Notes: a model not told the origin generated them from the sequence alone. Positions 23,895 to 64,000 are shown, numbered from the stretch's first letter. The stretch: 64,000 bases of DNA from Desulfobacterales bacterium (GCA_049366795.1 JBMNCP010000053.1:9675-73674); one strand, 5' to 3'. Translations and numbers: made by a program.

Positions 23895-23910
23895 TGGCAC
23901 CAGGTTTGCT
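23895..23910 (+). promoter_or_regulatory. Sigma54 (-24/-12) promoter of the hydrogenase operon
   Basis: TGGCAC-CAGGT-TTGCT, an exact TGGCAC-N5-TTGC(A/T) match about 65 bp upstream of the start. Confidence 0.8.
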
Positions 23911-23973
23911 TCAAACCGTCGTCCAACGGAAACAACGACCGTTTTCATGAAACACAGAGTGAACGGAGAAGGG

Positions 23974-25209
23974 ATGAAATCGATGATGCAAATCAATCGG
24001 CGAAAATTCTTGAAGTACTGTATCGGCTCGGCCGCATCGCTGGGGCTTCCCCTGTCGGTGGTCGGCAAACTTGAAAGTGCCCTGGCCGCCGACGGCGCAG
24101 GATTGCCGACGGTGGTGTGGCTGGCGGCCTCCAACTGCACGGGATGCACCGTCTCCCTGGCCAACCGCTTCGACGGCGAAGGGCCCAGGGATATCGCCGA
24201 TCTTCTGACCGGCACCATCAACCTGGCCTACCATCCGAATCTCATGGGGGCGGCGGGCGACCTGGCGGTGCAACAGCTTCGGGACGTCACCGCCGGCGCC
24301 TTCATCCTGGTGGTCGAAGGAGGAATCCCCACGGCATTCGACGGCTATGCCTGCATGCTGTGGACGGCAAACGGGCATGACGTGACGGCGAAGGCCGCGG
24401 TGCAGGAACTTTCCCGGAAGGCTGCCGGGGTCCTGTGCGTCGGCACCTGCTCCAGCTACGGAGGAATGCCGTCCGCCAGTCCGAACCCTACGGGAATCGT
24501 CAGCGTGTCGGAGCTGACCGGGCTTCGTACCGTGAACATTCCGGGATGCCCGACCCATCCGGACTGGATCGTCTGGACGGTTGCGAGCCTCCTGGCCGGC
24601 GAAATGCCCGACCTCGACGAAGCATCGCGTCCCCGGGCGCTGTTCGACCGGAAGATCCACGATGTCTGTTTCCGCAAAGGCCGGGGAGAGGCCAAGCAGT
24701 TCGGAGACCCGGTCAGATGTCTGAAGGAACTCGGCTGCAAGGGGCCGAAGACCAAGGCCGACTGTCCCGCCCGGAAGTGGAACAGCGGCAGCAACTGGTG
24801 CCTGGGCGCCGGCTCTATCTGTATCGGGTGCACCGAATCGAATTTTCCGGACGAATTCTCGCCGTTTTACAAAGTCGAATATCCCTACCATGTCTATGAG
24901 AAGCAGAGCGAGCCGCCCGGAGGGGATCCCCCGGATGAGGAGCCGCCCGTGCAGGACCCTGTTTCCCGGCTTTCGATTCGAAGCGCCGAGTGGCGGCGGA
25001 AGAACGATGAGCTCCGGGTGGAAGGCGACAGCGACGCCGGCGCGCTGGTCACCGTCAGCAACGCGGAGACCGGAATCGTCCACGGGGTCGTTTCGGCTGA
25101 GAACGACGGGCGGTGGCGTGTGCGGGTCAGGAACGTCAAACCGGCCCCGTCCAGGATCCGGGCCACCTCGGGAAAGCTCAGCCGGGAGAGCGATGTCACA
25201 CGCAGGTAG
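23974..25209 (+). CDS. Tat-exported [NiFe]-hydrogenase small subunit with extra C-terminal beta-rich domain
   Basis: NRRKFLK Tat motif; CTGC, GTCSSYGG, PGCP, HDVC, CLKELGCKGP, DCP, WCLGAGSICIGC; then a Pro/acidic linker and ~80 aa extra domain; no TM anchor. Confidence 0.92.
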   Translation: MKSMMQINRRKFLKYCIGSAASLGLPLSVVGKLESALAADGAGLPTVVWLAASNCTGCTVSLANRFDGEGPRDIADLLTGTINLAYHPNLMGAAGDLAVQQLRDVTAGAFILVVEGGIPTAFDGYACMLWTANGHDVTAKAAVQELSRKAAGVLCVGTCSSYGGMPSASPNPTGIVSVSELTGLRTVNIPGCPTHPDWIVWTVASLLAGEMPDLDEASRPRALFDRKIHDVCFRKGRGEAKQFGDPVRCLKELGCKGPKTKADCPARKWNSGSNWCLGAGSICIGCTESNFPDEFSPFYKVEYPYHVYEKQSEPPGGDPPDEEPPVQDPVSRLSIRSAEWRRKNDELRVEGDSDAGALVTVSNAETGIVHGVVSAENDGRWRVRVRNVKPAPSRIRATSGKLSRESDVTRR

Positions 25210-25343
25210 GATGACATGATCGATTAGCGTGATTCTCCGGTTTGAACCCGGGATCCGAAAAACATCCGGGGCCGCTGCCGAACCCTGCCTAAACGTCGTT
25301 CCACCGCGGTTTCCCGTCGAGAGCATCTTGAAAGGAATTGAGC

Positions 25344-26777
25344 ATGAAAACCGTTAAGATCATGGATCCGGTAACCCGAATCGAGGGGCACCTGAAGGTT
25401 GAAGTCACCATCGATTCGATCAACGGCGTCCAACAGGTGGTGGATGCCCATTGCACCGGCACCCTGTTCAGAGGCTTCGAAACCCTCTTGAAGGGCCGCA
25501 AGCCGATCGATGCCACCGTCATCACCCAGCGGATTTGCGGCGTCTGCCCGATATCCCACGGACAGACCTCGGTGCTGGCCCTGGAAAGCGTGTCGGAGTG
25601 GAAAGCTCCCGCCGGCGCCCGACTGCTTCGCAACCTGACCCTGGGCGCGAATTTTCTCCAGTCCCACATTCTGCACTTCTATCTGCTGGCAGCCCTCGAT
25701 TATGCCGAAGGTCCCGCGGCCTCGCCATGGGCTCCGGCATGGAACGTGGACATGAGACCGGGCGCCGGGTCCGCGATGGAGCACCTGGCGAACGCCATCG
25801 AGGCGCGCCGGCGTGCCCACGATCTCGGTGCCGCGTTGGGGGGGCGCATGCCGACCTCCCACGCATTCGTGCCGGGCGGATTCAGCCAGATGCCGTCCGA
25901 CGATCAGATCCGGACGGCAAAAGCGCATCTGGAATGGCTCCTGGGATTTATCCGCAACACCTACATCCCGGATGTGGAGACGGTTGCCCACATTTATACA
26001 GACTATGGAAGCGTCGGCCGGGGATGCGGCAACCTGTTCGCCTTCGGCGTATTCGAAATGGACGATGATTACGCCACCAGGCTTTTCGAGCCCGGCTACG
26101 TCCAGAATGGCGGCAGCGTGGTCCGCTCCTCCATTCAGACCCGGTCGATTACGGAGGCCGTCAAGCACTCCTGGTACCAGGACGAAACCGGCGGCCTCAC
26201 ACCGGATTGGGGCGAAACCCGGCCCCTGTACCCCAAACCCGGCGCCTATTCCTGGCTCAAGGCGCCCCGCCTCTTCGACCAGCCTTTCGAGGCCGGCCCT
26301 CTCGCACGCATGCGGGTCAACGGCGACTACACCGGCGGCATTTCCGTCATGGACCGCCACCTTGCAAGGGCGTACGAGACCCTGAAAATCGCCGAGGCCA
26401 TGTCCGCCTGGTTCTTCGAACTGGGCGGAAGTGCCTACGACACCGCCTATGAACAGTATGCGGGGGTCGGGGTGGGCCTCTCGGAGGCGCCGCGCGGCGC
26501 CCTCGGCCACTGGGTCGAAATCCGCGAAAAGGAGATCGCCAACTACCAGATCATCACGCCTACCTGCTGGAACGCCTCTCCGCGGGACGACAAGGATGTT
26601 CCCGGCCCCATGGAACAGGCGCTGATCGGGACTCCGATCGAAGACCGGGACCAGCCGCTCGAAGTCCTCAGGGTGATCCACTCCTTCGACCCGTGCCTGT
26701 CGTGCGCCGTGCACATGATTCGCCCGGATCGGAAGCCCGTGGTGGTCCACGGCGGAGCCGGCCGATGCACACCCTGA
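25344..26777 (+). CDS. [NiFe]-hydrogenase large subunit (group 1, 1a-like)
   Basis: DPVTRIEGH, L1 QRICGVCPISH, EAPRGALGHW, PTCWN, L2 SFDPCLSCAVH, then a cleavable C-terminal tail. Confidence 0.93.
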   Translation: MKTVKIMDPVTRIEGHLKVEVTIDSINGVQQVVDAHCTGTLFRGFETLLKGRKPIDATVITQRICGVCPISHGQTSVLALESVSEWKAPAGARLLRNLTLGANFLQSHILHFYLLAALDYAEGPAASPWAPAWNVDMRPGAGSAMEHLANAIEARRRAHDLGAALGGRMPTSHAFVPGGFSQMPSDDQIRTAKAHLEWLLGFIRNTYIPDVETVAHIYTDYGSVGRGCGNLFAFGVFEMDDDYATRLFEPGYVQNGGSVVRSSIQTRSITEAVKHSWYQDETGGLTPDWGETRPLYPKPGAYSWLKAPRLFDQPFEAGPLARMRVNGDYTGGISVMDRHLARAYETLKIAEAMSAWFFELGGSAYDTAYEQYAGVGVGLSEAPRGALGHWVEIREKEIANYQIITPTCWNASPRDDKDVPGPMEQALIGTPIEDRDQPLEVLRVIHSFDPCLSCAVHMIRPDRKPVVVHGGAGRCTP

Positions 26778-27226
26778 TCATCGGGCTGGGCAACGAACTC
26801 CTGGGAGACGAGGGCGTGGGCGTCCACGCGGTCCGCGCCCTCGAACCCGGCTCGCTTCCGGCCGGGACCGCGGTTCTCGAGGTGGGAACGGCCATCCTCG
26901 ACGCCGTGGACGCCCTGACCGCACCGGAACGCATCATCGTCATCGATGCCATGAAAGCCGGAGGGCGGTCCGGGACCGTCTATCGGATACCGCTTTCCGA
27001 CTGCGGCGGGCAACCCTGCATCGCGTCCATGCACGGGTTCGACATCTTCCGGGTCCTGGCCCTTGCCGGAAGAACCGACATTCCGGAGATCATCGTCTTC
27101 GGCGTGGAACCGCATTCCATCGCTTGGTCGATGGCCCTTTCCCATCAGGTTCAGGAAGCCATTCCGCAGCTGCTGGAGGCCGTCCGGTCGGAAACCGTGG
27201 AGTCGATCCAAATGTCTATGACGTAG
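26765..27226 (+). CDS. Hydrogenase maturation protease (HyaD/HupD family)
   Basis: IIGLGNELLGDEGVG, VIDA, SMHG, FGVEP; start reset to ATG 26765. Confidence 0.9.
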   Translation: MHTLIIGLGNELLGDEGVGVHAVRALEPGSLPAGTAVLEVGTAILDAVDALTAPERIIVIDAMKAGGRSGTVYRIPLSDCGGQPCIASMHGFDIFRVLALAGRTDIPEIIVFGVEPHSIAWSMALSHQVQEAIPQLLEAVRSETVESIQMSMT

Positions 27227-27870: not shown

Positions 27871-28911
27871 CTAACCCTGACGTCCATAATAGCCATAATA
27901 GCGGTCCGTAGAGGTCGAATACTTTCGGCCGTTGATGACAAAGCCCAGGAATTTGTTCCTGGGGATGAGCTCGATGGAGCGTTCGACCTCGGCGATGGTG
28001 GTTATTCCCTCCCGCACCACCATGACGATACCGTCCACATTGGGAGCGAAGGCCATGGCATCCGTGGCTTCGAGCAGGGGCGGAAGATCGAAGATAATGA
28101 AACGCTCCTCGTAGCGGCTTTTCATATCGCGAACCAGGTCGGCCATGCGCCTGGACTCCAGCAATTCCGTGCTGTCCTGGATGGTTCGTCCCCCGGATAT
28201 GATGGTGAGCTTCTCGATGCCGGGCCACACGATAAGTTCGTTCATGGGCTTGTCGAACAGAAGAAATTCGACAAGCCCCGCCTCGCTCTCATAACCCAGG
28301 ATTTTGTGGATGGACTGCTTTTTCAGGTCGCAATCCACGAGAATGGCGGTGTGATTGTATTCCCGGGCAAAGGTCAGGGCCAGGTTGACGGCCGTCGTTG
28401 TCTTCCCCTCTCCGGAGCGTGGACTGGTGACCATGAGCGTGCTCCAGCCCCGGTCCCGCATGGCGTGAAGGATCTGGGTGCGCAGCATCCGGAAATGCTC
28501 CGCTTCCTGCCGCTCTGAAAACATGCAGATACAGCGATTGTTCTCGAGAATGGACGGGTCGAGCACTACCTTCCGGGATGTGCCGTAATCGGGCGAGAAC
28601 CAGCCGGCATTTTTCCCGGCCGGCATGTTCCCGGACCCTTGAACGCCTTTCGAAGGAACGCCCTCATCCGGTCTTTTCCTCAGCGGGGCTGCCGGGGTTC
28701 GATCCGGCCTGGAACCCGCAGGAGGCGACGACGATGCGCCGGTTTCACGACGGCCGGGCGCATGTGCTGAAGCCGCGAATGCATTCCCTTCCCCGCCTTG
28801 TTTTTTCATATCCCCTGTCATCCTCGAAATTTTGTCCGGTGTCTTGTTCAACGTATCATCCTCTGGTGGGTCCTGTGGGGTTGCTTCGGGGTATCGTAAC
28901 GTTTTCGTCAA
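27871..28911 (-). CDS. BY-kinase (CpsD/CapB, Wzc-type tyrosine kinase); start uncertain
   Basis: EHFRMLRT, Walker A SPRSGEGKTT, LVDCDL, IFDLPP, C-terminal Tyr cluster RYYGYYG. Confidence 0.88.
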   Translation of the reverse strand: MTKTLRYPEATPQDPPEDDTLNKTPDKISRMTGDMKKQGGEGNAFAASAHAPGRRETGASSSPPAGSRPDRTPAAPLRKRPDEGVPSKGVQGSGNMPAGKNAGWFSPDYGTSRKVVLDPSILENNRCICMFSERQEAEHFRMLRTQILHAMRDRGWSTLMVTSPRSGEGKTTTAVNLALTFAREYNHTAILVDCDLKKQSIHKILGYESEAGLVEFLLFDKPMNELIVWPGIEKLTIISGGRTIQDSTELLESRRMADLVRDMKSRYEERFIIFDLPPLLEATDAMAFAPNVDGIVMVVREGITTIAEVERSIELIPRNKFLGFVINGRKYSTSTDRYYGYYGRQG

Positions 28912-29041
28912 ATTTCAGAGGGCTGCCCGAAGCCCGCTGCCGCCGAGTATCCCGGCCCCGCCTCGGGTTCGGCGCGGTCTTCGTTCAAGTCTCTCGGCTG
29001 CTGCGGCGAATGCATCTGCCGGTGTTCGGGCGGCAAACCCT

Positions 29042-30712
29042 TCATAACCCCAATTTCCGTGTCAGCCCGATCCATGCCAGATCGAGATCCATGACGAAGT
29101 AGTGGATTAGCACCGGCACCGCCACGATCACAAGGAGCAGCACGGCGATTCTGAAGTACGTCTTCCGAATGCGGCGCTTCGACTCGTTGGCGGTCATGAT
29201 GACGGGTATGCCCGCGAGAACCGGAAATCCAGTGATCCGCGTCAGATGATCGGGCTTACGGACCGTGTGGTCCGCGTACTCCCTCAGGGCCGCAAAACCG
29301 ACGCCGGCTCCGATTCCCAAAACGAGCCCCAGAAGTACGATGGCGAGGCGGTTCGGTTTGGAAGGTTTTTCCGGCAACCGAGCCGGATCGATCAGGGTGA
29401 ACCGCTCACCCTTCTGCTCCTTCTCGAGACCTTGCGCCACCCGGGCTTCCATCGCCTTCTGGAGCAATTCGTTGTATTTCGCCTGGGTATTGGCGCGATC
29501 CGAAACCAGCAGGTTGAATTCTTCTTCGACCCGAGGGGTCTGGTTGATTCGCCTGCGGTATTCCTCCACTTTTTTCTCCAGATTGGCGATCTGCCGTTCG
29601 ATGGCGTTGATCTCGGCTCGGGTGCCGGACAGTTGGGACGCCAGGGTGACATAGGCCGGATTCTCGGGAACCCGCTTGTCTTCGCTCGATTTGAACGGCG
29701 TCGGATAGGCGGGAAGGTCCAGCTTCGTGCGCAGCCGATCGATCTCCTTCCGGGTCTTGTAGACGTCCGGATAGGCCTCCGAGTACCGGGTGAGCAGGGA
29801 ACCCAGTTCTATCTCGAGTGCTTCGAGCCGCTTCAGGTCTTCATCCTTCTGTTCGATCCAATTCTGGTCCCATTCCCTCGGTGTGATGGCGAGCTGGCTG
29901 GCCAGGTAGCCTTCACGCTCCTTGAGGCTCTGAAGCTGCTCGTTGTAGAGGTCGATGCTTCTCTCGATCCGGTCCAGGGTCTGGACATTGGCGTCCAGGA
30001 GCTCCGGCAGCTCGTTCATGTGCAGGCTCTTGAAATCGGCGATTCCAGCTTCGAGACCGTCCAGCCGCACCCGCAGACGGGAGGCCTCATCTTCCAGGAA
30101 CTGATAGGTTTCAGCGGTCTGGCGCTCCCGCACTCTGAGATTCTCCTCCAGCAGCAGACTCGTCAGCTGGTTGACGACGTTCTGGACGGTTGCCGGCGCC
30201 TCCCTTGCCTCGAAGGACAGGGTGAAGGCGATCGTGGCCTCCTGGGTTTTGCCGGTGCGCCGGTCCATGACGTCGGCGCTGATCGGTTCGAGACTCACCT
30301 CGTCCCGCATCCGCTCGATGATCTCCTCGGTGGTGGCCTTGTCTCTCAGGTGCTGGTAGAGACCGAACCGGTTGATGACCTCCAGCAGGCGCGTCGAACT
30401 CATGATCCGTTGATTGATGACCTGGATGCGCTGTTCGGCGTAGCTGGTGATGGTGGCCGTGACGAATTCCGGCGGGATCTCCTGTTCCTCGATGAGAATC
30501 GTGGCGGTGGATTTGTAGACCGGGGGCAGAAGCAGCGCCACCAGAGTGCACAGGAGGAAAATCAGGGAGGCGGTCAGGATCAGGCTCCACTTCCTTCGAC
30601 GCAAGATGTCCAGGAAATCGGAAGCCGACAGGACTGGCGCCTCCGAGTCACGGGTTTCCCCCGTGTATCGGCCGGCAACAGCGTCTCCGCGTTCTGCAAT
30701 CGGATGGTGCAT
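29042..30712 (-). CDS. Polysaccharide co-polymerase / chain-length determinant (Wzz/GumC type)
   Basis: Two TM helices flanking a coiled coil; LPPVYKSTATILIE, YSEAYPDV, IDPARLPEKPSKPNR. Confidence 0.88.
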   Translation of the reverse strand: MHHPIAERGDAVAGRYTGETRDSEAPVLSASDFLDILRRRKWSLILTASLIFLLCTLVALLLPPVYKSTATILIEEQEIPPEFVTATITSYAEQRIQVINQRIMSSTRLLEVINRFGLYQHLRDKATTEEIIERMRDEVSLEPISADVMDRRTGKTQEATIAFTLSFEAREAPATVQNVVNQLTSLLLEENLRVRERQTAETYQFLEDEASRLRVRLDGLEAGIADFKSLHMNELPELLDANVQTLDRIERSIDLYNEQLQSLKEREGYLASQLAITPREWDQNWIEQKDEDLKRLEALEIELGSLLTRYSEAYPDVYKTRKEIDRLRTKLDLPAYPTPFKSSEDKRVPENPAYVTLASQLSGTRAEINAIERQIANLEKKVEEYRRRINQTPRVEEEFNLLVSDRANTQAKYNELLQKAMEARVAQGLEKEQKGERFTLIDPARLPEKPSKPNRLAIVLLGLVLGIGAGVGFAALREYADHTVRKPDHLTRITGFPVLAGIPVIMTANESKRRIRKTYFRIAVLLLVIVAVPVLIHYFVMDLDLAWIGLTRKLGL

Positions 30713-30736
30713 TTTGGCAATTCTCCCTCTCGTGGA

Positions 30737-40548: not shown

Positions 40549-40553
40549 GTTCT

Positions 40554-51586: not shown

Positions 51587-51620
51587 CGCCGTCCTCCTCA
51601 TGGGTAAGATCTTCGAGAGG

Positions 51621-57211: not shown

Positions 57212-58582
57212 TCAGTCGATCCCGTAGCTTTCCAGTTTCCGGCGAAGGGTGCTGAGGCTGACGTCCAGGATACGGGCGGTCTGGGATTTGTTGCGGTCGG
57301 TGGCCTGGTAGGCATGGAGGATGTGCCGCCGTTCGAGTTCGGCGAGCGGCAGGATGTCGGGGCCACCGGGGACGGAGGCTCCCGGATGGCGGTTTCGGCT
57401 CTTGCGGACGGATTCCGGAAGAAAGCGGCTGAAGAGCCCCCTTCCCTGGCTCAGGTTCAGGGCGGCGTGGACGATCGCCTTCAATTCGCGGATGTTGCCC
57501 GGGAACGGATATTCCATAAGAGTTTCGACGGCGTCGTCTTCTACGGTGCAGGCTTCGGGTCGTTCGCAGAACTCGGCGAAGAAGTGGTTGATCAGCAGAG
57601 GGATGTCGCCGGCCCGCTCCCGGAGCGGAGGAAGATCGAGCCAGGCCCCCCTGAGCCGGTAGTAGAGATCCTTTCGGAATCTTTTCCGCGCCATCAGCTT
57701 TTCGAGGTCTTCGTTGGTCGCGGCGATGATCCGGATGTCGGCCTTCTGGGGGCGGCTGGTCCCCAGCTTGATGAACTCTCCGCTTTGCAGCACCCGCAGA
57801 AGTTTCCCCTGCAGCTCGAAGGGCAGGTTGCCGATCTCGTCGAGGAAAAGCGTTCCCTTGTGGGTGGTCTCCAGGAAACCCGCCCGGTCGTCTTCGGCGC
57901 CGGTGAAGGCGCCCCGCGTGTGCCCGAAGAATTCGGCGCCGAAAAGCGTTCCGTCCACCGCATCCATGTTGATGGCGGTGAAGGGGTGCCTGGAACGGCT
58001 GCTGGCCTGGTGGATCGCCCTGGCCAGCAGCTCCTTACCGGTCCCCGTCTCCCCGCTCACGAGGATCGGCACGTCGCTTCGGGCATGAAGCTCGGCTTCC
58101 CTCAGAAGCCGCTGAACGGCGCTGGATTGAGTGACGATCGGCGCAAAGGCTTCTCGGTTTCTGAGGGCCGGAAGGGTCTTCCGTTTTCCGAGATCGATAA
58201 TGTCGAAGAGGTGCTTGCGTTCCTGGGCGCGGCGGACGGACTTCAGGAGATCCTCCTTGGAAATCGGCTTCACCAGGTAGTCGTAGGCCCCGTTTTTGAG
58301 GCAGTCGACGGCCACCCTGGCCTCGTCGATGGCCGTCACCATGATGCACTCGGTCTGGGGGCTTGCGGACTTGATGATGGAGAGCAGTTCGATTCCCGTC
58401 ATGCCGGGCATGGTGATGTCGATGAGGGCGATGTCGAAGTCCTCGCCGTCCTCGAACCGCCTCGCGGCGGCTCTCGCATCCGGCTCCACGTGGATGTTGC
58501 GATACCCCGAGGTCACCAAGCCGCGCCGGATGCTTTCCAGAAAATCCCTCTCGTCGTCGATGACAATGATGCTCGAATCCAT
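57212..58582 (-). CDS. Sigma54-dependent response regulator (REC-AAA+-Fis HTH)
   Basis: IDDE, DITMPG, GETGTGKE, GAFTGA, LFLDEIG, FRKDLYYRL, FPGNIREL, C-terminal HTH. Confidence 0.95.
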   Translation of the reverse strand: MDSSIIVIDDERDFLESIRRGLVTSGYRNIHVEPDARAAARRFEDGEDFDIALIDITMPGMTGIELLSIIKSASPQTECIMVTAIDEARVAVDCLKNGAYDYLVKPISKEDLLKSVRRAQERKHLFDIIDLGKRKTLPALRNREAFAPIVTQSSAVQRLLREAELHARSDVPILVSGETGTGKELLARAIHQASSRSRHPFTAINMDAVDGTLFGAEFFGHTRGAFTGAEDDRAGFLETTHKGTLFLDEIGNLPFELQGKLLRVLQSGEFIKLGTSRPQKADIRIIAATNEDLEKLMARKRFRKDLYYRLRGAWLDLPPLRERAGDIPLLINHFFAEFCERPEACTVEDDAVETLMEYPFPGNIRELKAIVHAALNLSQGRGLFSRFLPESVRKSRNRHPGASVPGGPDILPLAELERRHILHAYQATDRNKSQTARILDVSLSTLRRKLESYGID

Positions 58583-58753: not shown

Positions 58754-61700
58754 TCAGGAATCCTGCGGCCCCCTGTCGGGAAGCGTCACCGTAAAGGTAC
58801 TGCCCTCGCCCGCGCGGCTTTCCGCCTGGATCGTCCCGGAAATGTCCCTGAGCAATCTCCGGCAGACATAGAGCCCCAGACCGGAACCGCCCTCATTGAG
58901 CTTGGTCGAAAAAAAGGGGTCGAAGATCTGAAGCCGCGTCTTCTCGTCCATTCCGCAACCGTTGTCGGAAACGGTAATCCTCCAACCGGGTTCCGGATCG
59001 TCGGTTCTCGCGATGGCCATTCGAATCCAGGAGTCCTTCTTGTCCGCCGCCTGCGCGGCATTGACCAGGAGATTGATCAGGATCTGCTCCAGGGTTCCCG
59101 CGTTGCTGTAGATACGGGGGCGGCCGGCCGGCATCCGGATGTCCAGCGTCTTCACCGTCTTCTGGATTTTGCTCCTGCAGATGGCCAGCGCGCGGTCAAC
59201 GACCTCTTTCAGGTCTACCCATTTCATGGCGGTATCTGGATGGGTTCGTGCAAATTCCCGGAGATTGCCCAGAAAGGCATCGATCCGCTGCGAGCCGTGG
59301 GTCAGGTTCTCGAGAAGCCGAAACGCGTCCTTCCGGAACTCCGCGTAGGGCATGTTGAGGACTTCGAAATCCGGGTTTTCCGCAGCATGCCGGTCCACGA
59401 TGGGGAGCAGCTCGTTGAAGTACTCCTTCAGAATCGGGACGTTGAAGGCGATGAAGCTGTTGGGGTTGTTGAGTTCGTGGGCCACGCTGGAGACCAGCAT
59501 GCCCAGGGAGGCCAGCTTTTCGCTCTGGATGATCTGGCGTTCCAGCAGGCGGCTCTCGGTAATGTCGTTGATCCGTATCACCACCCTGCCCTTCCCGGTT
59601 TCGGATCCCGATACCGGATAAACCACCACCTGCTCCTGGCGGGATGGATCGATAAACCCGTCCCTTTCGAACGTGACGATCCTTCCGCTGTCGACGGCCT
59701 GAGGCATCTGGCAGGCGTCGCAGGCTTCCGGGTTGTGCCGCATCACTTCCCTGCAGGTTCGGCCGATCACCGTCTTCTGATCCTGTAGCTTCAAGTAGCG
59801 GACCGCGGCGCTGTTGACCATGAGCACGCGCAAATCCTTGTCCGCGAGGATCAGCGGGTCGGATATCCCGTCGAAAACCGCCTGGAGCATTCCCTGCTGC
59901 TCCAGCAGGAGGGTTTCGGCGCGCCGGCGTTCGCGGACCTCGTTCTTGAGCTGTTCGTTGGAGCGGATCACCTCCGCAGCCCGCTCGGCCACCCGCTCCT
60001 CGAGGCGTTCGTTGGCCTTCCGGAGCTCCGCCTCCGCCCACATCCTCTGGATTCCGGCGCCGAGCTGGATCCCGGCATTCTCGAGCAACTGGACGGTTTC
60101 CAGCGGCAGGCGACCTTTCCGAATGTCCGCCACATGGATGAGACCGATCACGCGGTTTTCAGCCCGGACGGGAATCAGCGCAACCGACTCGTAACCGAAC
60201 CGGTTGCAGGCGTCTCGCGTCCTGATCGTATTCCCTGCCGACAACTCGGTGGCCAACCGGCCGGTACTTTGGGTGAAAAAAGACCCCATGCCGGTGAAGT
60301 AGGGCTTCGAGGAGTCGACCTCGCCGCAGATCACCCGGATGCACATGCACTCGTCGGAATGGATGGAAATCGGGTTTTCCAGTTTCAGGAACGACTCGCA
60401 GAAACCGTCGTTCGCGGCATAGGGGATGGCGCCGTCGCCTTCCAGCAGCCGGATACCTGCGGCGGTGCAGCCGGTCAGGGACTTGATCTCGCGGATGAAC
60501 GCCTCGAGGGTCGGCTCGAGGGAGGAAAGCGAACTCGCGATTCGGAGAAACCGGTAGGATGCCTGAAGCGCGAGCTCGGCCTTTTTGAATTCGGAGTTGT
60601 CCGAAATGGTCGTCCGGCAGAGAACGGTTTGGCCGTCGTCGTCGAATTGCGGAGCGCTTTCGATGCGGGCGTGAAAGTCCCCCTTCAGGCGTCGAAACAT
60701 CCGGATTTCGCACACCTGCCGATTTCCGGAATCGAAGACCTTCTGGATGTGCCCGAAAAAGGCCTGCCGGTCCTCCGGAACCAGGAAATCCAGGAACGGT
60801 GTGCGTTCCAGTTCGGAGGAGTCGCAACCCAGCAGCCGCGCCGCAGTCCGGTTGGAATTGACGATCCGGCAGTTCCGGTCGAACGTCAGGTATCCGACGG
60901 GTGCGCTGTGGTAAAGATCGGAATACCGCTCCCTGGAGGCTTCGAGCTCGGCCTGGGTTTTCCGCAGCACCGCATTTTGCCGTTCCAGGTCCTGCCGCTG
61001 TCGCAGGAGGGCGGATTCGGTCTGTTTGAGCAGGGTGATGTCCCGGATGACCGACAGGATGTTTGCCTGGCCATCGAGCTCGATCAGGGTGGCGGAGATC
61101 AGCGCGGTGATGACGAACCCGTCCTTGCGCCTCAGCTCCGCCTCGAAGTTGCGGACGGTTTTGTTCGCTGTCAGCTCCCGGATAAAGCGGGTTCTGAGCT
61201 CCGGAGGGACCCAGGCATGGATGTCGATGGAGGACTTGCCGATCACCTCTTCCCGTTCGAATCCGCTGAGAAGCGCAAACCCTTCGTTGACATCTAGAAA
61301 CCGGCCGTCCTCGAGCCGCGATATCGCAATACCGTCCGGGCTGGTGGCGAAGATTTTCCTGAAGCGGGTCTCGGACCGGTGGCTGATGGCGGCCTGGTGG
61401 TGGCGCGCGACCAGGGTGTTGATCTTCTCGGCGATCGCCCTGAGCAGCTGCACATCCACATCGGGTGGTGGCGTCTGCTCCCCGGGGGGGACGTCCCTGT
61501 CGGTGTCCCTCAGGACCCCGACAAAACCGACCGTCCGGCCCGCAAGGAACAGCTCGCTGGCCAGGGCCGGCCGCTCCGGCGAATCCGGATACTCGCCGAA
61601 AACCCGCTTTCCGAATGCGATTCGGACGCCAGCCGCCCCGGGAGACGGCCAGAGCCCCGGAAGGCGTTCGGCGATCTCCTGTAATACCTGCTCGAGCGAC

Positions 61701-62086
61701 TTATCGGAGCCGGATGTCAGTCGGCTGACCTCGTAAAGGCAGTTCAAAGCCTCGAGACTTCCCGGGTCCGACGCGGTGCCGGCTCCCTCGGCTTCGCCTC
61801 CGATGCAGTCCATGCCGCATACCAACGGCATCGATTCGAGGACCCCGCCAGCCGTCAGGCCCGCTTCGAAAATGTCGAGTTCATCGGAAGCGTCGGCATC
61901 CTGATCCATCTTGATCGCCAGTGCATCTCGGAGAATCCCGTTTTCGGCTTCGAGGTCCGATGCCCGCGCCTCGAGTTCGGCAACCCGGCGTCGAAGCTCC
62001 TCGAGGGATTCCGAAGACGCGCCTGCGGGCGTGACGTTCGAATCGAACCTCGGGTCGCGGAGTTCGAATTCAGAGCTGTCGTTCAT
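58754..62086 (-). CDS. Cytoplasmic PAS/GAF sensor histidine kinase; start approximate
   Basis: Three PAS-like domains and a GAF; H-box VAHELNNP, NAAQA, DNGCG, PFFSTK, GSGLGL; no obvious TM helix. Confidence 0.9.
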   Translation of the reverse strand: MNDSSEFELRDPRFDSNVTPAGASSESLEELRRRVAELEARASDLEAENGILRDALAIKMDQDADASDELDIFEAGLTAGGVLESMPLVCGMDCIGGEAEGAGTASDPGSLEALNCLYEVSRLTSGSDKSLEQVLQEIAERLPGLWPSPGAAGVRIAFGKRVFGEYPDSPERPALASELFLAGRTVGFVGVLRDTDRDVPPGEQTPPPDVDVQLLRAIAEKINTLVARHHQAAISHRSETRFRKIFATSPDGIAISRLEDGRFLDVNEGFALLSGFEREEVIGKSSIDIHAWVPPELRTRFIRELTANKTVRNFEAELRRKDGFVITALISATLIELDGQANILSVIRDITLLKQTESALLRQRQDLERQNAVLRKTQAELEASRERYSDLYHSAPVGYLTFDRNCRIVNSNRTAARLLGCDSSELERTPFLDFLVPEDRQAFFGHIQKVFDSGNRQVCEIRMFRRLKGDFHARIESAPQFDDDGQTVLCRTTISDNSEFKKAELALQASYRFLRIASSLSSLEPTLEAFIREIKSLTGCTAAGIRLLEGDGAIPYAANDGFCESFLKLENPISIHSDECMCIRVICGEVDSSKPYFTGMGSFFTQSTGRLATELSAGNTIRTRDACNRFGYESVALIPVRAENRVIGLIHVADIRKGRLPLETVQLLENAGIQLGAGIQRMWAEAELRKANERLEERVAERAAEVIRSNEQLKNEVRERRRAETLLLEQQGMLQAVFDGISDPLILADKDLRVLMVNSAAVRYLKLQDQKTVIGRTCREVMRHNPEACDACQMPQAVDSGRIVTFERDGFIDPSRQEQVVVYPVSGSETGKGRVVIRINDITESRLLERQIIQSEKLASLGMLVSSVAHELNNPNSFIAFNVPILKEYFNELLPIVDRHAAENPDFEVLNMPYAEFRKDAFRLLENLTHGSQRIDAFLGNLREFARTHPDTAMKWVDLKEVVDRALAICRSKIQKTVKTLDIRMPAGRPRIYSNAGTLEQILINLLVNAAQAADKKDSWIRMAIARTDDPEPGWRITVSDNGCGMDEKTRLQIFDPFFSTKLNEGGSGLGLYVCRRLLRDISGTIQAESRAGEGSTFTVTLPDRGPQDS

Positions 62087-62512
62087 GATGATCCATCGAT
62101 GGCTGGAGGCCGTATCAGGCCGGGCATCCTTTCGGGCGATGAACCCGTTTTCCTGCTCAGGTTGATGGTTCTGGATGAAGATGAATGTCGAGGCACCGGC
62201 GCGCATCGATCGAAGAATCGAGCCGCCCGGTTTTGATCGCCTTTATGTTTAATCCATATGTGAAAGACCTGCAAGGCTTGGATGATGCACGTCCTGCCCC
62301 GCTGTCTCCCGCTGTTTCCGCCTGCCGCGGCCCGGCCATGGCGGGCCGGTCTCGGGGGAAATGCCGTACAAAACCAGAGGATGCAGGCGTATCCGGATAT
62401 TAACATCGTATCTTATATCATACTATTATAATCGGGAATCATCTCACTATGAAATAAAACTGCAACTGTATTGTCCTGTAAACCATTACAGTTACCGATA
62501 AGCCTGAATTTC

Positions 62513-62528
62513 AGGCATGCACCTTGCT
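62513..62528 (+). promoter_or_regulatory. Sigma54 promoter of the multiheme cytochrome gene
   Basis: AGGCAT-GCACC-TTGCT with GG and GC correctly spaced; upstream CATCTCA-CTA-TGAAATA (62440-62456) resembles the 57071/57146 sites. Confidence 0.68.
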
Positions 62529-62623
62529 TCCCTCCTAGGCTGTCATCCCCCCCACACATATGTCGGTGAATTTCAATAAATGAATGAAGGGCGGCTGCGT
62601 CCGTCCGGCAACGAGGTGACTGC

Positions 62624-64000
62624 ATGAAAAAATTGGTTCAAGTTCGTTTCATCCGCCCCCTGCATCCCATCTGGACCTTCGGGATCATGATCGGCTGCTG
62701 CATGGTGTTGATCCCAGCGCTGGCCCATTCGGCGCTCTCCGTCACGGAAGCGAAGTGGAATCCCAAAAATTCGACGCTCGAAGCCAGGGGAGAATCCGCC
62801 CCCAACAGCCAGGTCGACATCAGTGACGCGGAGACCCGGACCCAACTGGGCACGGCGGTCGCCGACCGAAAAGGAAACTGGCGGTTCCGGCTGCGAAACC
62901 CCGAAATCGTTCCTTGTCAGGTATCGGCAACCTCTGAGGATTTCACGATCCAGGCCGACGTGGCCGGCACTCCCGGCGACTGCGGAACGGCCACTCCCCC
63001 TTCGGATCCGGAAACGGTCACCGGCTCTCATGCCGGCCGCTTTTCCGCGTACGAGGGCACCCGAACCTGTCTGGAATGCCACGCCACCGAAGCCATGGAG
63101 GTTCACTCCTCGGTGCACTACCAGTGGAAAGGGGATGCGTCGGAGGCGGTCGGGCTATCCACGGATACCGCCGGCAAGTTGGGGGGCATCAACGACTTCT
63201 GCATCTATCCGGACATCAACTGGATCGGGAAGCTGACCAACACCGCCGGCAACCCGGTCGACGGCGGGTGCGCCAAGTGCCACGCGGGTCTTGGAGACAA
63301 GCCCCAGCCCGAAGCCACCCAGGAGCAGCTCGAAAACATCGACTGCCTGGTCTGCCATTCCGACGGCTACAAGCGAACGGTGGATCTCGTGGACGGCAGG
63401 TACCGTTTCGTCCCGGATTCGAACCAGATGGCGGTCAGCATTCTCCAGGCAGCCTCGGACATCACCCGCCCCGGCAATGACAGCTGCCTCAATTGCCACA
63501 CCAAGGCCGGCGGCGGGAACAACTTCAAGCGGGGCGATATCGAGGAGGCCCATCGGAATGCCAGCAGGGATTTCGACGTGCATTTGGCATCGGCCGAATC
63601 GGGCGGCGCCGGGTTGCAGTGCACGGATTGTCACACCTCCGTGTCCCACAAGATCGCCGGCCGCGGCGTCGATCTGCGGCCCCGGGACAGCATGGACGAG
63701 GTGAGCTGCGCGAAATGCCACACCGAGATGCCCCACTACAACGAGCGACTGGACCGCCACACCGCCAGGGTCGACTGCACCGCCTGCCACATCCCGACCT
63801 ACGCCAAGGCCGCGCCTACCGACATGCTGCGGGACTGGAGCCAGCCGGGCGATCCGGTGGAAGCCACCGGGCTCTACGAGCCGCACCACGAGAAAGGACT
63901 GAACGTCACGCCGGTCTACCGTTTCTTCAACGGCACCAGCACCTTTTATGAATTCGGCGCGGAGGCGATCCCCGGAGACAACGGCCGCATCACCATGGCC
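62624..64000 (+). CDS. Octaheme tetrathionate-reductase (OTR)-family multiheme cytochrome c with extra N-terminal domain (3' partial)
   Basis: Not in the ORF track; translated manually. Signal peptide, then seven CxxCH (CLECH, CAKCH, CLVCH, CLNCH, CTDCH, CAKCH, CTACH) with OTR-like HYQW, GK..GINDFC, GGG..KRGD, DVH, HIP, DWS, YRFFNG. Open to window end. Confidence 0.85.
   Translation, partial: MKKLVQVRFIRPLHPIWTFGIMIGCCMVLIPALAHSALSVTEAKWNPKNSTLEARGESAPNSQVDISDAETRTQLGTAVADRKGNWRFRLRNPEIVPCQVSATSEDFTIQADVAGTPGDCGTATPPSDPETVTGSHAGRFSAYEGTRTCLECHATEAMEVHSSVHYQWKGDASEAVGLSTDTAGKLGGINDFCIYPDINWIGKLTNTAGNPVDGGCAKCHAGLGDKPQPEATQEQLENIDCLVCHSDGYKRTVDLVDGRYRFVPDSNQMAVSILQAASDITRPGNDSCLNCHTKAGGGNNFKRGDIEEAHRNASRDFDVHLASAESGGAGLQCTDCHTSVSHKIAGRGVDLRPRDSMDEVSCAKCHTEMPHYNERLDRHTARVDCTACHIPTYAKAAPTDMLRDWSQPGDPVEATGLYEPHHEKGLNVTPVYRFFNGTSTFYEFGAEAIPGDNGRITMA

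Follow-up and report, generated by a model that had tools for sequence, protein, structure and literature searches.

The 40 kb stretch analyzed here (positions 23,895 to 64,000 of a 64,000-nucleotide window from a Desulfobacterales bacterium) is probably a mosaic of three functional modules rather than a single apparatus, a reading to which we give a probability of about two in three. The first-pass annotation had proposed one sigma54-controlled redox apparatus. As a unit, this apparatus is only partly supported, and coupling of the multicopper oxidase (MCO) to hydrogen, cytochrome or exopolysaccharide (EPS) is unsupported. The most interesting part of the stretch is a three-gene MCO operon, which is widely conserved and apparently undescribed, no description of a split A/B/C MCO operon having been found in the literature. 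Its three related products probably form a working O2-reducing copper enzyme only once assembled together.

All the genes listed in the first-pass annotation are present by Pfam, NCBIfam and sequence (Table 1). The giant protein gene and the EPS genes are co-directional as it had claimed, every gene from 56868 down to 27871 lying on the minus strand. The MCO module (42401-62206, minus strand) begins with the genes of a PAS/GAF kinase and a sigma54 response regulator. A single operon follows, encoding a 1735-aa protein, MCO A, MCO B and MCO C, the lipoprotein, the S8 protease and the PilZ protein. The host genome (4.79 Mb) carries dsrA and two cydA genes; candidate RNA runs probably consist of DNA reads.

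Table 1. Features of the locus, in window coordinates.
Feature	Position	Strand	Remarks
Left EPS half	13016..23578	+	Wzx-type flippase, sulfotransferase, Wzy-like protein, two GT4 glycosyltransferases, second sulfotransferase (Pfam)
sigma54-type promoter TGGCACCAGGTTTGCT	23895..23910	+	0 mismatches; ends 36 nt before hydS start
hydS, [NiFe] hydrogenase small subunit	23947..25209	+	Tat motif RRKFLK; TIGR00391 213.8 bits (cut-off 179.5)
hydL, [NiFe] hydrogenase large subunit	25338..26777	+	RICGVC and DPCLSC motifs; Cys, not Sec
Hydrogenase maturation protease, HycI/HybD type	26693..27226	+	TIGR00072 115 bits (cut-off 47.45)
EPS export/assembly genes	27871..37008	-	Tyrosine-autokinase-like ATPase, chain-length determinant, outer-membrane barrel, Poly_export, PrsT TPR, priming sugar transferase
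Exosortase XrtD fused to EpsI domain	37090..38718	-	TIGR04152 426.5 bits (cut-off 400); TIGR02914 106.1 bits (cut-off 42.8)
WecG-family and GT4 glycosyltransferases, weak sulfotransferase-like protein	38354..41471	-	Profile matches
PEP-CTERM-type protein	41644..42351	-	235 aa; C-terminus ...VPIPGSVVLLGSGLLGIVLSRRRPA
PilZ-domain protein	42401..42832	-	Accompanies the MCO operon in genomes G163 and G272
Secreted S8 protease	42848..46123	-	1091 aa; MopE-like motif; three 582-nt Big_9/cadherin-like repeat units
Lipoprotein	46232..46696	-	154 aa; matches no known family; modelled as small beta-sandwich
MCO C	46788..48977	-	729 aa; two ligand-free cupredoxin domains, then two 582-nt repeat units
MCO B	48991..50361	-	456 aa; domain 2 HPLHLHG and WHSH = four trinuclear-cluster His
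MCO A	50369..51601	-	410 aa; domain 1 HSVHWHG and HCHx5Hx4M = T1 site and four trinuclear-cluster His
Secreted giant protein	51661..56868	-	1735 aa; Ig-like/SdrD_B/CarboxypepD_reg domains, right-handed beta-helix, GADEF-type C-terminus
sigma54-like site CGGCACGCTCCTTGAT	56944..56959	-	Upstream of giant gene; -12 is GA, not GC
Palindrome TGTCAGAATGACG	57133..57145	.	Upstream of giant gene; candidate activator site
sigma54-dependent response regulator	57212..58582	-	Receiver, AAA+, Fis HTH domains
Histidine kinase	58754..62206	-	1150 aa; several PAS domains and a GAF domain
Perfect palindrome CTGTAAACCATTACAG	62476..62491	.	Lies 22 nt upstream of AGGCATGCACCTTGCT
sigma54-like site AGGCATGCACCTTGCT	62513..62528	+	Before cytochrome gene; 2 mismatches, GG and GC kept
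OTR-family multiheme cytochrome	62624..64000, continuing past window end	+	N-terminal tag domain

The copper ligands are divided between MCO A and MCO B

The ligands of MCO A (H143, H146, H148, H188, C189, H190, H196 and M201) are unchanged in all 75 aligned sequences, and its domain 2 has no copper ligands. MCO B has a ligand-free domain 1 and a serine at the position expected for the T1 cysteine; H285, H288, H290, H421, S422 and H423 are unchanged in 79 of 79 aligned sequences. No conserved His or Cys was found across 70 aligned sequences of MCO C, whose two repeat units (582 nt each) are 100% identical to one another. The 582-nt units are common to MCO C and the S8 protease.

Among solved structures, the three paralogs are closest to two type C two-domain MCOs, the Nitrosomonas europaea blue copper oxidase (3g5w) and the metagenomic mgLAC (2zwn). 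When aligned to them, the MCO A motifs fall on the domain 1 motifs and the MCO B motifs on the domain 2 motifs. Type C enzymes are homotrimers in which each chain has all the ligands and a trinuclear cluster sits at each interface, where domain 1 of one chain meets domain 2 of the next. A, B and C resemble them in having two cupredoxin domains per chain, and A in having the T1 site in domain 1. They differ in that the ligands are divided between two gene products, the third having none, and in the company of a giant beta-helix protein (68/80 loci). Judging from sequence, we read A, B and C as paralogs from a type C two-domain MCO that make up an obligate heterotrimeric derivative. Since the ligands are split between A and B with none in C, one active site per heterotrimer is predicted.

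We propose that A-B-C would be a six-domain cupredoxin ring containing a single T1 copper and, where A meets B, a single trinuclear cluster. This ring would be obligate because A retains ligands in domain 1 alone (T1 and four His) and B in domain 2 alone (four His). Electrons would enter at the T1 copper of A and reach the trinuclear cluster through the Cys-His link, O2 being reduced to water, and MCO C would act as a catalytically dead, ring-closing subunit. Three runs of an A:B complex model gave a score of 0.89, and none of the 3 controls exceeded 0.00; the mark applied is reached by 58 of 80 solved complexes versus 2 of 110 mismatched pairs. At least 96% of the contacts agree between runs, the partner pLDDT is at least 91, and the interface includes A146, A148 and A190 together with B288, B290 and B423. 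The A:B model may score well through likeness to solved homotrimeric two-domain MCOs.

Concerning the electron donor, a periplasmic c-type cytochrome is the guess to which we commit, at rather less than even confidence, and a reduced metal ion (Cu+, Fe2+ or Mn2+) has about the same likelihood. With a cytochrome as donor, the complex would be an envelope O2-consuming oxidase in a sulfite-reducing anaerobe.

Conservation and neighbours of the MCO operon

Among the matches listed, MCO A relatives occur in at least 565 of 595 pattern-matched stretches from species genomes, and hosts of the MCO core belong to Desulfobacterota, Nitrospirota, Gammaproteobacteria, Planctomycetota, Acidobacteriota, Verrucomicrobiota and Myxococcota. 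Neighbourhoods were counted in 80 retained loci with 10 kb flanks. MCO B adjoins A in all 80 and C is present in 79; the counts for the giant, the lipoprotein and the S8 protease are 68, 59 and 37. The giant protein is conserved over its full length in about 60 loci. Of the other loci, 74 contain a complete A ORF, and in 9 of these the giant and MCO A form a single ORF; the two proteins are presumably attached physically.

The other neighbours include SCO1/SenC (21/80), CusA-like RND pumps (7) and CusB-like proteins that contain a heavy-metal-binding domain (5). ORFs with CxxCH motifs lie near 29 of the 80 loci, a monoheme family of ~560 aa being found in 21 of these. Neither SCO1 nor this monoheme family was found in the host genome. 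The presence of SCO1 and CusAB would fit copper handling equally well. The modules had been expected to travel as a conserved unit, an expectation contradicted by the profiling: within 10 kb, a hydrogenase and an exosortase each occur in 0/80 MCO loci, and an OTR-like cytochrome in 1/80 (locus L051).

In the closest MCO cluster, that of G163, the genes follow in the same order; the histidine kinase is 61%, the response regulator 75%, A 83% and B 79% identical, and the giant, C, lipoprotein, S8 and PilZ genes are all present. Hydrogenase, OTR and exosortase are absent from the 55 kb around it, and the tag domain described below is not matched in G163. In G272, a response regulator (61%), a kinase and a PilZ gene adjoin the MCO operon.

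The hydrogenase and the multiheme cytochrome share a tag domain

The hydS product ends with a rare Ig-like tag domain (aa ~340-417). The cytochrome belongs to the octaheme tetrathionate reductase (OTR) family, and its full length of 617 aa contains 10 CxxCH motifs instead of the eight implied by the "octaheme" of the first-pass annotation. Residues 340-417 of hydS and 36-113 of the cytochrome share 37% identity (E 1.8e-14), and these are the only two copies of the tag in the whole genome. A library of 1.84 billion proteins gave 141 matches; at least three of them are full-length small subunits of hydrogenases with the copy at the C-terminus, and several are OTR-like multihemes with the copy at the N-terminus. 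On the metagenome contigs L127 and L128, which are 95% alike and therefore represent one lineage, a sigma54 site is followed by a 12-heme OTR-like cytochrome, a tagged hydS (61%), hydL and hycI; the tag is not detectable in this cytochrome. No tagged hydrogenase was found in the five other tag-positive genomes tested, where hydS matches stop near residue 310.

A link between the hydrogenase and the cytochrome is supported by the common tag domain and by the adjacency in L127/L128. The periplasmic [NiFe] hydrogenase and the decaheme OTR-type cytochrome, both putatively sigma54-dependent, probably work as a pair, in which H2 oxidation would feed sulfur or nitrogen oxyanion reduction. The hydrogenase resembles the periplasmic [NiFe]/[NiFeSe] enzymes of sulfate reducers in its Tat-exported small subunit, both CxxC motifs and the maturation protease, its best curated models being of the HysAB type. 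It departs from them by a Cys in place of Sec, scores under the NiFeSe cut-offs and the terminal Ig-like domain. For the cytochrome, the best match is TIGR04315 (212.8 against a cut-off of 375, for the 458 aa inside the window); the 10 CxxCH motifs and the N-terminal Ig-like tag distinguish it from the Shewanella OTR.

Related beta-rich domains had been attributed to exported products of all three units. Homology does hold for the tag of hydS and the cytochrome, and the S8 protease and MCO C have their repeats in common, but the two sets show no demonstrable relation to each other by hhalign (probability 12.7%). In a class sample of 300 other genomes, 6 have MCO A and 2 of those 6 also have the tag, which is found in 6/300 overall. 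This co-occurrence and the sigma54-type sites at all three units count against full independence of the modules.

The EPS module is an ordinary exosortase locus

The EPS module is an ordinary XrtD/EpsI exosortase locus with sulfotransferases, its halves lying on both sides of the hydrogenase genes and having a single candidate PEP-CTERM substrate. PrsT scores 341 bits with TIGR02917 (cut-off 312.2), and the remaining PEP-CTERM-system models in 27871..37008 score slightly under their cut-offs. The locus is similar to XrtD (VPLPA-CTERM)/PEP-CTERM EPS systems in its XrtD, EpsI fusion, PrsT, export, chain-length and kinase genes, and in the C-terminal VPIPG-TM-RRR sorting signal of the 235-aa protein. 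It differs in that this protein is the one candidate substrate, the only such ORF in the genome by regex, and in that the kinase and regulator nearby do not qualify as PrsK/PrsR (89.9 bits versus a cut-off of 300, and 285.3 versus 502.6). Within the range first annotated, the sulfotransferase-like protein (40554-41471) is a weak match, at 21.9 bits against a cut-off of 22. In the left EPS half, outside that range, two clear sulfotransferases (14651-15643 and 22673-23578) reach 65.7 and 78.6 bits with Sulfotransfer_3 (cut-off 27).

Sigma54 sites and regulators

Sigma54-type promoters are indeed found at all three units as first annotated; they recur before orthologous units elsewhere, and rpoN is present in the host genome. 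Perfect sites number 20 in the 4.79-Mb genome, TGGCACCAGGTTTGCT upstream of hydS being among them, and hydS of G002, from the same genus, is preceded by a 1-mismatch site. Three OTR orthologs have sites comparable to AGGCATGCACCTTGCT at -119 to -128. The giant-gene site CGGCACGCTCCTTGAT lacks the near-invariant -12 C. At the equivalent place, G163 has the same GGCACG-N4-yTGA and G272 a GG/GC site; in G157 and G270, neither a sigma54-like site before the giant nor a sigma54-regulator match beside the operon was found. A site with GG and GC kept and no more than 2 mismatches lies within 400 nt of the called start of the giant in only 3 of 57 other loci, and 24 MCO loci have NarL-type regulators instead. 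Window-wide, 26 sites with at most 2 mismatches were found versus 24.95 expected by chance. As this is no excess, the support comes from placement and conservation, not from counts.

The sigma54 two-component pair lies between the MCO and cytochrome units, as reported in the first-pass annotation. Its response regulator is 75% (G163) and 61% (G272) identical to MCO-adjacent orthologs, versus 55-58% to its own paralogs, which supports the pair as a conserved companion of the MCO operon in these two genomes. The kinase and regulator presumably activate the MCO operon from its sigma54 promoter. G163 has a palindrome, TGTCAAAATGACA, at the place equivalent to TGTCAGAATGACG; CTGTAAACCATTACAG has its sole match in the window at the cytochrome gene, 0.51 being expected by chance. 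The candidate palindromes upstream of the three promoters are unlike each other. Both G270 and G272 have the tagged cytochrome on a different contig from the MCO operon, and in G272 each of the two has its own sigma54 activator. The differing palindromes and the arrangement in G272 speak against the single co-regulated system proposed at first.

One apparatus or three modules

In the first-proposed apparatus, H2 would be oxidized by the tagged hydrogenase and electrons would pass through the decaheme cytochrome and the A/B/C oxidase to O2, the whole being a sigma54-controlled envelope system on a scaffold set within exosortase-linked sulfated EPS. Supporting this idea, sigma54-type sites stand at all three units with one two-component pair between, the tag occurs in 2 of the 6 other MCO-positive genomes of the class sample and in 6/300 overall, cytochrome ORFs accompany 29/80 MCO loci, one of them OTR-like, hydrogenase and cytochrome are linked, and the host is an anaerobe with dsrA. 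A Thioclava operon (PMC13488337) is reported to combine a single MCO gene with three monoheme c-type cytochromes and a MerR regulator and to be induced when electrons are taken up from a cathode, O2 being the acceptor; compared with A/B/C by description only, it is a precedent for electron flow from cytochrome to MCO to O2. On the other hand, hydrogenase and exosortase are missing within 10 kb of all 80 MCO loci. G163 has the MCO operon and an orthologous kinase and regulator, but no tag, and hydrogenase, OTR and exosortase are not nearby. The separate contigs of G270 and G272, the individual activators of G272, the differing palindromes and the absence of detectable kinship between the tag and the MCO C/S8 repeats point the same way. 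We consider a single apparatus very unlikely and favor the mosaic of three modules.

Within the mosaic, A/B/C could be a metal oxidase for Cu+, Fe2+ or Mn2+, acting in copper homeostasis or metal oxidation like CueO/PcoA or MnxG and not fed by a cytochrome. Such a role, which we regard as possible though somewhat unlikely, would agree with the SCO1/SenC, CusA-like and CusB-like neighbours (21, 7 and 5 of 80), the MopE-like metal-binding motif of the S8 protease, the invariant acidic E192 and E195 between the T1 ligands of A, and the weak NCBIfam matches of A to CopA-type and CueO models. However, SCO1 may serve copper insertion only, and SCO1 and the monoheme cytochrome family are missing from the host. 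The Met-rich region of CueO is absent from the sequence, the regulators are of sigma54 or NarL types rather than CusRS/CopRS-like, and we know of no counterpart of the conserved giant beta-helix protein and protease in copper-resistance systems. It could also be that the paralogs do not assemble, B and C being degenerate duplicates or separate non-catalytic cupredoxin-fold proteins, for example copper-binding or structural on the giant. MCO C is entirely ligand-free, its relatives range from 232 to 1234 aa, and the A:B model could score well by reproducing known homotrimers. Nevertheless, A has four of the eight cluster histidines and B exactly the complementary four, invariant in 75/75 and 79/79 sequences, B and C stay beside A in 80/80 and 79/80 loci, and the modelled interface joins both His sets. 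Non-assembly is thus quite unlikely, and we keep the heterotrimeric oxidase as our reading.

Parallels with other multicopper oxidases

A parallel can be drawn, by description only, with an exported MCO of another anaerobe of the former Deltaproteobacteria, the OmpB/OmpC of Geobacter. OmpB is one large chain with the full ligand set; it has neither the A/B/C split nor the conserved giant-lipoprotein-S8 context. Ceruloplasmin and Bacillus MnxG are single polypeptides forming a ring of six cupredoxin domains, with one trinuclear cluster where two domains meet; several T1 sites are present in ceruloplasmin, and MnxG is encoded with accessory subunits and a SCO1-like gene. Likened to them by description only, A/B/C would form a similar six-domain ring from three polypeptides, with one T1 site predicted.

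Gene content of the window

Because the window is G+C-rich, open reading frames were chosen by their third-position G+C, and they were annotated with Pfam and NCBIfam models (Table). The gene list of the first-pass annotation was correct, subject to three corrections. Rfam and tRNA scans of the window gave no matches, and scans for terminators and sigma70 promoters between 41.4 and 57.3 kb stayed at chance level. The central-metabolism genes at the start of the window bear no relation to the redox and EPS modules: they encode a DctP solute-binding protein, an aldehyde:ferredoxin oxidoreductase, a zinc alcohol dehydrogenase, fumarate reductase/succinate dehydrogenase subunits, a GntR regulator, a citrate-lyase-like aldolase and succinyl-CoA-synthetase/ATP-citrate-lyase-like subunits.

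Table. Features of the window and their matches around MCO operons. Matches were counted by tblastn of the window proteins on the best 80 loci, with flanks up to 10 kb; some of these loci are short, and misses therefore include truncated contigs.
Feature	Position (nt)	Strand	Size and place	Match in best 80 loci
Central-metabolism genes	1-13067
Second EPS block	13016-23578
hydS, hydL, HycI-type protease (Pfam, NCBIfam)	from 23.9 kb	plus
ORF of no family	27272-27598	minus	108 aa; between hydrogenase protease and EPS kinase genes
Secreted (giant) protein	start of row 56868 to 27871	minus	1735 aa; first of row	68/80
MCO A		minus	410 aa; directly after giant gene
MCO B		minus	456 aa; after MCO A	80/80
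MCO C	repeats at 46800-47966	minus	729 aa; after MCO B	79/80
Lipoprotein		minus	154 aa; after MCO C	59/80
S8 protease	repeats at 42860-44608	minus	1091 aa; after lipoprotein	37/80
PilZ protein		minus	after S8 protease
PEP-CTERM protein		minus	235 aa; after PilZ gene
Glycosyltransferases		minus	after PEP-CTERM protein
XrtD exosortase fused to EpsI		minus	after glycosyltransferases
Priming sugar transferase		minus	after exosortase
PrsT (341 bits, cut-off 312.2)		minus	after priming sugar transferase
Export, outer-membrane, chain-length and kinase genes	down to 27871	minus	last of row
Sigma54 response regulator			upstream of giant gene	7/80 (regulator-like)
PAS/GAF kinase			upstream of giant gene	5/80 (kinase-like)
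OTR-family cytochrome			divergent from PAS/GAF kinase gene	1/80 (OTR-like)

MCO A and MCO B carry complementary copper ligands

The three multicopper oxidase paralogs contain two cupredoxin (Cu-oxidase Pfam) domains per chain, and all match 3g5w and 2zwn, the type C two-domain MCOs that are their closest solved proteins. Motif alignment to these structures assigned the motifs of A to domain 1 and those of B to domain 2. The first cupredoxin domain of A displays HSVHWHG and HCHx5Hx4M, and its second one no ligand motif; in B it is the second domain that displays motifs, HPLHLHG and WHSH, and the first that has none; C has no HxH motif. Among orthologs taken from 80 loci, all eight ligand positions of A are invariant (75/75 sequences), including the T1 ligands H143, C189, H196 and M201, which are present only in A. 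B possesses five invariant histidines and an invariant serine in place of the T1 cysteine (79/79), and no conserved histidine or cysteine was found among 70 sequences of C.

In type C two-domain MCOs, the copper cluster is formed by four histidines from domain 1 of one subunit and four from domain 2 of the next. Each chain of these enzymes possesses all eight histidines of the trinuclear cluster, whereas here only those of domain 1 are found in A, only those of domain 2 in B, and C carries none. Since the histidines come from domain 1 and from the neighbour's domain 2, A alone or B alone would hold half a cluster, and the two together a whole one. The type C enzymes are homotrimers, whereas the ligand pattern of A, B and C argues for a heteromer; it is the pattern that an A-B-C ring with a single surviving interface would leave. 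Six-domain MCOs of the ceruloplasmin/MnxG type are, by contrast, single polypeptides, and here we find three separate ORFs with gaps of 7-13 nt. A-B or B-C fusions were suspected in seven MCO B ORFs of 611-890 aa, none of which carries the A motifs. Five of them have long N-terminal extensions, which we read as the upstream gene read open in another frame; in the other two (loci L064 and L077) the extension is at the C-terminus instead.

We modelled a complex of A (residues 33-410) and B (residues 42-456), each with its own alignment. The model scored 0.89 in three of three runs and the best of three controls 0.00; the mark that it passes is also passed by 58 of 80 solved complexes and by 2 of 110 mismatched pairs. 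Contacts agreed between runs at 96% or more, partner pLDDT was at least 91, and the modelled interface includes residues 146, 148 and 190 of A with residues 288, 290 and 423 of B. Because solved homotrimeric relatives exist, this result is to be taken as a likeness, not as a proof. We commit to A, B and C as a putative envelope oxidase, heterotrimeric and O2-reducing, for which we infer both the A-B-C stoichiometry and the role of C.

MCO C also contains two repeat units of 582 nt (194 aa), and the S8 protease three; these were found by a repeat search and missed by Tandem Repeats Finder, whose period limit is 500. Identity is 100% between the two MCO C copies and 65-87% between these and the S8 copies. 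This pattern suggests that the units were recently duplicated or underwent gene conversion, or possibly that they were collapsed in the assembly. Outside the window, the genome contains three more cupredoxin/MCO-like ORFs, of 409, 685 and 534 aa, with weak matches to MCO A (G000:C18:26694, C30:2875 and C28:95835, respectively).

The MCO operon is widespread

Relatives of MCO A number 6378 proteins (E <= 1e-5) among 8000 scored candidates, and at least 565 of 595 pattern-matched stretches, from contigs of one genome per species, encode one. Nitrifiers, sulfur oxidisers, sulfate reducers and Planctomycetota are found among the hosts of the matches listed. In the class-level sample MCO A is present in 7 of 301 genomes, the window's own included, and the operon occurs in 0 of 16 genomes of the host's family. 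No specific family for A, B, C or the lipoprotein exists in Pfam or NCBIfam, and no heteromeric two-domain MCO is described in the open-access PMC and bioRxiv literature that we searched.

Besides the conserved operon genes (Table), recurrent neighbours in the 80 loci are NarL-type regulators (24), SCO1/SenC (21), a protein of about 560 aa with a monoheme cytochrome c domain (21), HisKA_3 kinases (12), CusA-like pumps (7) and CusB-like proteins (5). SCO1 and the monoheme protein were not found in the window's own genome. Within 10 kb of the MCO genes, 29/80 loci have ORFs with one or more CxxCH, and 3/80 have ORFs with four or more. As electron donors of the oxidase, c-type cytochromes would be our best guess, a tentative one, and a metal ion is about as likely.

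Giant protein and lipoprotein

A full-length match to the giant protein is present in about 60 loci, and in the protein atlas its matches are unnamed clusters of its own family. Among the 74 other loci in which the A ORF is complete, 9 encode the giant protein and A as one continuous ORF of 1957-2630 aa, in which variable Ig-like linkers separate the two parts. These fusions provide good evidence that the two act together physically. The linkers of three loci (L038, L066 and L080) contain Big_9/cadherin-like modules; by eye, they also show Ig-like segments with a hydrophobic pattern like that of the MCO C repeat and of the Ig-like domain, or tag, shared by the hydrogenase and the cytochrome.

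The C-terminal half of the giant protein was modelled as Ig-like domains and a right-handed beta-helix, with a mean pLDDT of only 63.5. Its weak matches to beta-helix glycoside hydrolases/lyases (best E 2.3e-4, TM 0.18-0.25) are a weak similarity to carbohydrate-active enzymes, which indicates the fold class only and does not fix a function. Likewise, the lipoprotein is predicted to be a small beta-sandwich (pLDDT 88.6), without a match in the PDB at E <= 0.001, and this fold does not fix its function.

Regulator synteny and sigma54-type sites

The closest MCO block belongs to G163, a genome of the class sample, and has the same gene order as the window. It comprises the kinase (61% identity), the regulator (75%), the giant protein (71%), A (83%), B (79%), C, the lipoprotein, the S8 protease and the PilZ protein (46%), and no hydrogenase, OTR or exosortase match was found in the 55 kb around it. 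In another genome, G272, the regulator (61%), the kinase and the PilZ gene also adjoin the MCO operon. The best paralogs of the regulator in its own genome reach just 57.6% and 55.1% identity, so that we consider the regulators beside these two operons as orthologs. We conclude that the kinase, the regulator and the PilZ protein belong to the MCO module, and the PEP-CTERM protein and all genes below it to the EPS module. The neighbouring pair is distinct from PrsK/PrsR, since both proteins fail the respective models (kinase, TIGR02916, 89.9 bits versus 300; regulator, TIGR02915, 285.3 versus 502.6).

Sigma54 sites were defined by GG at -24 and GC at -12, at fixed spacing within TGGCAC-N5-TTGCW, and rpoN is present in the genome. 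A sigma54-like promoter had been claimed before each of the three redox units. In sequence, this holds for hydS, whose site is perfect (the genome has 20 such sites, 17 of them before an ORF), and for the cytochrome gene, whose site has two mismatches with GG and GC kept; the giant-gene site has GA at -12 and lies outside the definition. That sequence, CGGCACGCTCCTTGAT, has a counterpart at the same place in G163, TGGCACGGTTTCTGAA, and both show the unusual TGA at -12. Upstream of the giant gene of G272 we found TGGTATGAAAATTGCC, with GG and GC kept. Two further genomes, G157 and G270, have no sigma54-regulator match beside the MCO operon; no sigma54-like site precedes the giant gene in G157, and the sole site in G270 has three mismatches and lies about 420 nt upstream of the first tblastn match of the giant protein, in a stretch that we read, from its translation, as the coding sequence of a NarL-like regulator. 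In the wider set, a canonical site precedes the giant gene in only 3 of 57 loci, and sigma54 control thus appears as a lineage-specific wiring of the MCO operon. In the window, the neighbouring kinase/regulator pair would activate the operon through sigma54.

A palindrome upstream of the giant gene is common to the window (TGTCAGAATGACG) and G163 (TGTCAAAATGACA). With at most one mismatch, TGTCA-N3-TGACA has two matches in the window, one before the giant gene and the other at 13405, within the flippase ORF and some 400 nt from its start; the only match to CTGTAA-N4-TTACAG, with at most two mismatches, is the one before the cytochrome gene. A shared enhancer was rejected, neither palindrome preceding a second redox unit. 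The 9-mer CCATTACAG lies upstream of both hydS (23794-23802) and the cytochrome gene (62483-62491), and one common 9-mer is about what our own arithmetic gives by chance for two 400-nt regions. ACATTACAG and CCATTACGA stand upstream of the OTR orthologs in loci L104 and L105; these occurrences could be due to chance, as their positions relative to the sigma54 sites vary. Three "transcriptomic" compost runs, containing 0.27-0.41 of sampled words, were discarded as expression data: with their thin, even cover of the contig, they are probably DNA.

Hydrogenase and OTR-type cytochrome

The hydrogenase fits the group 1 periplasmic [NiFe] type, with the Tat signal RRKFLK, the motifs RICGVC and DPCLSC, and TIGR00391 and the protease above their cut-offs. 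It differs from [NiFeSe] hydrogenases, which have Sec in DPUxxC, and it stays below the HysA/HysB cut-offs (NF045518, 475.9 bits versus 780; NF045520, 269.9 versus 470). The cytochrome had been described as octaheme; it contains 10 CxxCH motifs in 617 aa and extends beyond the window end. Eight haem sites characterise the OTR (octaheme tetrathionate reductase) family. Scored on the 458 aa inside the window, it reaches 212.8 bits with the OTR model TIGR04315 (cut-off 375).

HydS ends with a proline-rich linker and the tag, a domain of about 78 aa that is 37% identical to the cytochrome N-terminus (E 1.8e-14); tblastn found no third copy in the 4.79-Mb genome. The tag is rare, with 141 matches at E <= 0.001 among 1.84 billion representative proteins, and presence in 7/301 class genomes and 6/401 phylum genomes, the window's own included in both. 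Classes were assigned by phmmer against the window proteins and by haem-motif counts. The matches comprise hydrogenase small subunits that bear two to four copies at the C-terminus (P0121, P0127, P0157), OTR-like multihemes that bear one at the N-terminus (such as P0148, P0172 and P0196), other multihaem proteins, and many small proteins made of a signal peptide and the domain. In the phylum sample of 401 genomes, no tagged hydrogenase was found elsewhere among the 6 with a tag.

Three genomes (G305, G272 and G270) encode tagged cytochrome orthologs of 56-65% identity, preceded by sigma54-like sites at -119 to -128; the window site is at -128. Of the six other tag-positive genomes, four have a sigma54 activator gene in divergent orientation to the tagged multihaem gene. 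G002, of the same genus, encodes a tagged hydrogenase (63-70% identity) with a one-mismatch sigma54 site. Two related metagenome contigs, L127 and L128, which represent one lineage since they are 95% alike, show in one direction the sigma54 site TGGCATCATAATTGCA, a 12-haem OTR-like cytochrome (33% identical to that of the window), tagged hydS (61%), hydL (65%) and hycI (58%). Two observations speak against a strict pairing: the hydrogenases of five other tag-positive genomes are all untagged, and the OTR-like cytochrome of L128 has no detectable tag. We have moderate confidence, from the tag and the gene neighbourhoods, that hydrogenase and cytochrome would constitute a functional pair, in which electrons from H2 oxidation would feed the OTR-type reductase. 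In L104 (G305:C4), directly after the tagged OTR ortholog, a minus-strand segment at 536-883 is 49% identical to residues 354-465 of hydL, its C-terminal third; the remainder of hydL would not fit there, and the segment resembles a relic of a hydrogenase gene.

EPS locus

The EPS locus is of a known kind. The exosortase scores 426.5 bits with the XrtD model TIGR04152 (cut-off 400) and its EpsI part 106.1 with TIGR02914 (cut-off 42.8). A regular expression found one PEP-CTERM-type ORF in the genome, ending in VPIPG, a hydrophobic stretch and RRRPA; its matches to NCBIfam PEP-CTERM models are all below cut-offs, and the VPLPA-CTERM model reported none. The second EPS block, with a G+C of 45-55%, lower than its surroundings, encodes a Wzx flippase, a Wzy-like protein, two GT4 proteins, two clear sulfotransferases and, without a family match, two ORFs of 349 and 740 aa; owing to its position, the hydrogenase operon is bracketed by two EPS halves. 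These two sulfotransferases (65.7 and 78.6 bits; cut-off 27) lie outside the 23895-64000 range in which the first-pass annotation had placed a sulfated EPS; the sulfotransferase within it scores marginally (21.9 bits, cut-off 22). The WecG-family ORF continues for about 130 codons beyond its Pfam domain and shares about 360 nt (38354-38718) with the exosortase ORF. A frameshift may be the cause, or else a misplaced stop or exosortase start.

One apparatus or separate modules

The first-pass annotation had proposed that all these genes form a single sigma54-controlled redox apparatus coupled to the EPS, with electrons passing from H2 to O2. All three redox units do carry sigma54-type sites and stand together. 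Moreover, among the 300 other class genomes, MCO A is present in 6, the tag in 6 and both in 2 (G270 and G272), where our arithmetic gives about 0.12 if they were independent, related genomes not being so. However, in these two genomes the tag and the MCO operon are on different contigs, in G272 the tagged cytochrome and the MCO operon each have their own activator, and the MCO block of G163 is devoid of any tag. Nor were the modules found side by side elsewhere: hydS, hydL and XrtD were matched in 0 of the best 80 MCO loci (tblastn, flanks up to 10 kb, truncated contigs included). In addition, the candidate activator sites differ between units. Related beta-rich domains, which had been reported on all units, are indeed found within pairs (the tag on hydS and cytochrome, the repeat in the S8 protease and MCO C), but a kinship between tag and repeat could not be demonstrated (hhalign probability 12.7%, E 0.0023). 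We thus regard the complete H2-to-O2 chain as a minority possibility, and an improbable one. Co-location and sigma54-like sites were insufficient to define a system, and cross-genome comparison separated the modules.

The finding as initially framed was too broad, yet at its core is an enzyme architecture that is real, widespread and apparently undescribed. The host can be regarded as an anaerobe with ordinary oxygen defences, since it possesses dsrA and two cytochrome bd oxidase genes. In our boldest reading, which we consider unlikely, A, B and C would represent a new class of obligate heterotrimeric MCO, a three-gene six-domain ring with one active site, borne on the giant protein in hundreds of species, and in anaerobes, of which this sulfite reducer is one, would also serve as an envelope O2 reductase fed by multiheme cytochromes, here ultimately by the tagged hydrogenase. 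The cell would thus possess an oxygen sink that is based on copper, non-respiratory and controlled by sigma54.

Known two-domain MCOs are homotrimers and, in the proposed evolutionary scheme, the ancestors of six-domain enzymes such as ceruloplasmin. A three-gene heterotrimer with a copper cluster at one of its three interfaces would, if confirmed, be a living intermediate on the path from two to six domains and a new way of building an asymmetric oxidase. Since many environmental bacteria share this unexplained copper enzyme and its partner of 1700 residues, it constitutes a concrete biochemical target. As for the tag common to the hydrogenase and multiheme cytochromes, it can be tested as a means by which redox partners meet in the periplasm. 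A tag (E 3e-6) is also found in locus L125 (G688:C94, 410-2564), within a 556-aa open frame that has weak cupredoxin matches to MCO A and B on its flanks (25-34% identity) and may encode an MCO-like protein carrying the tag.
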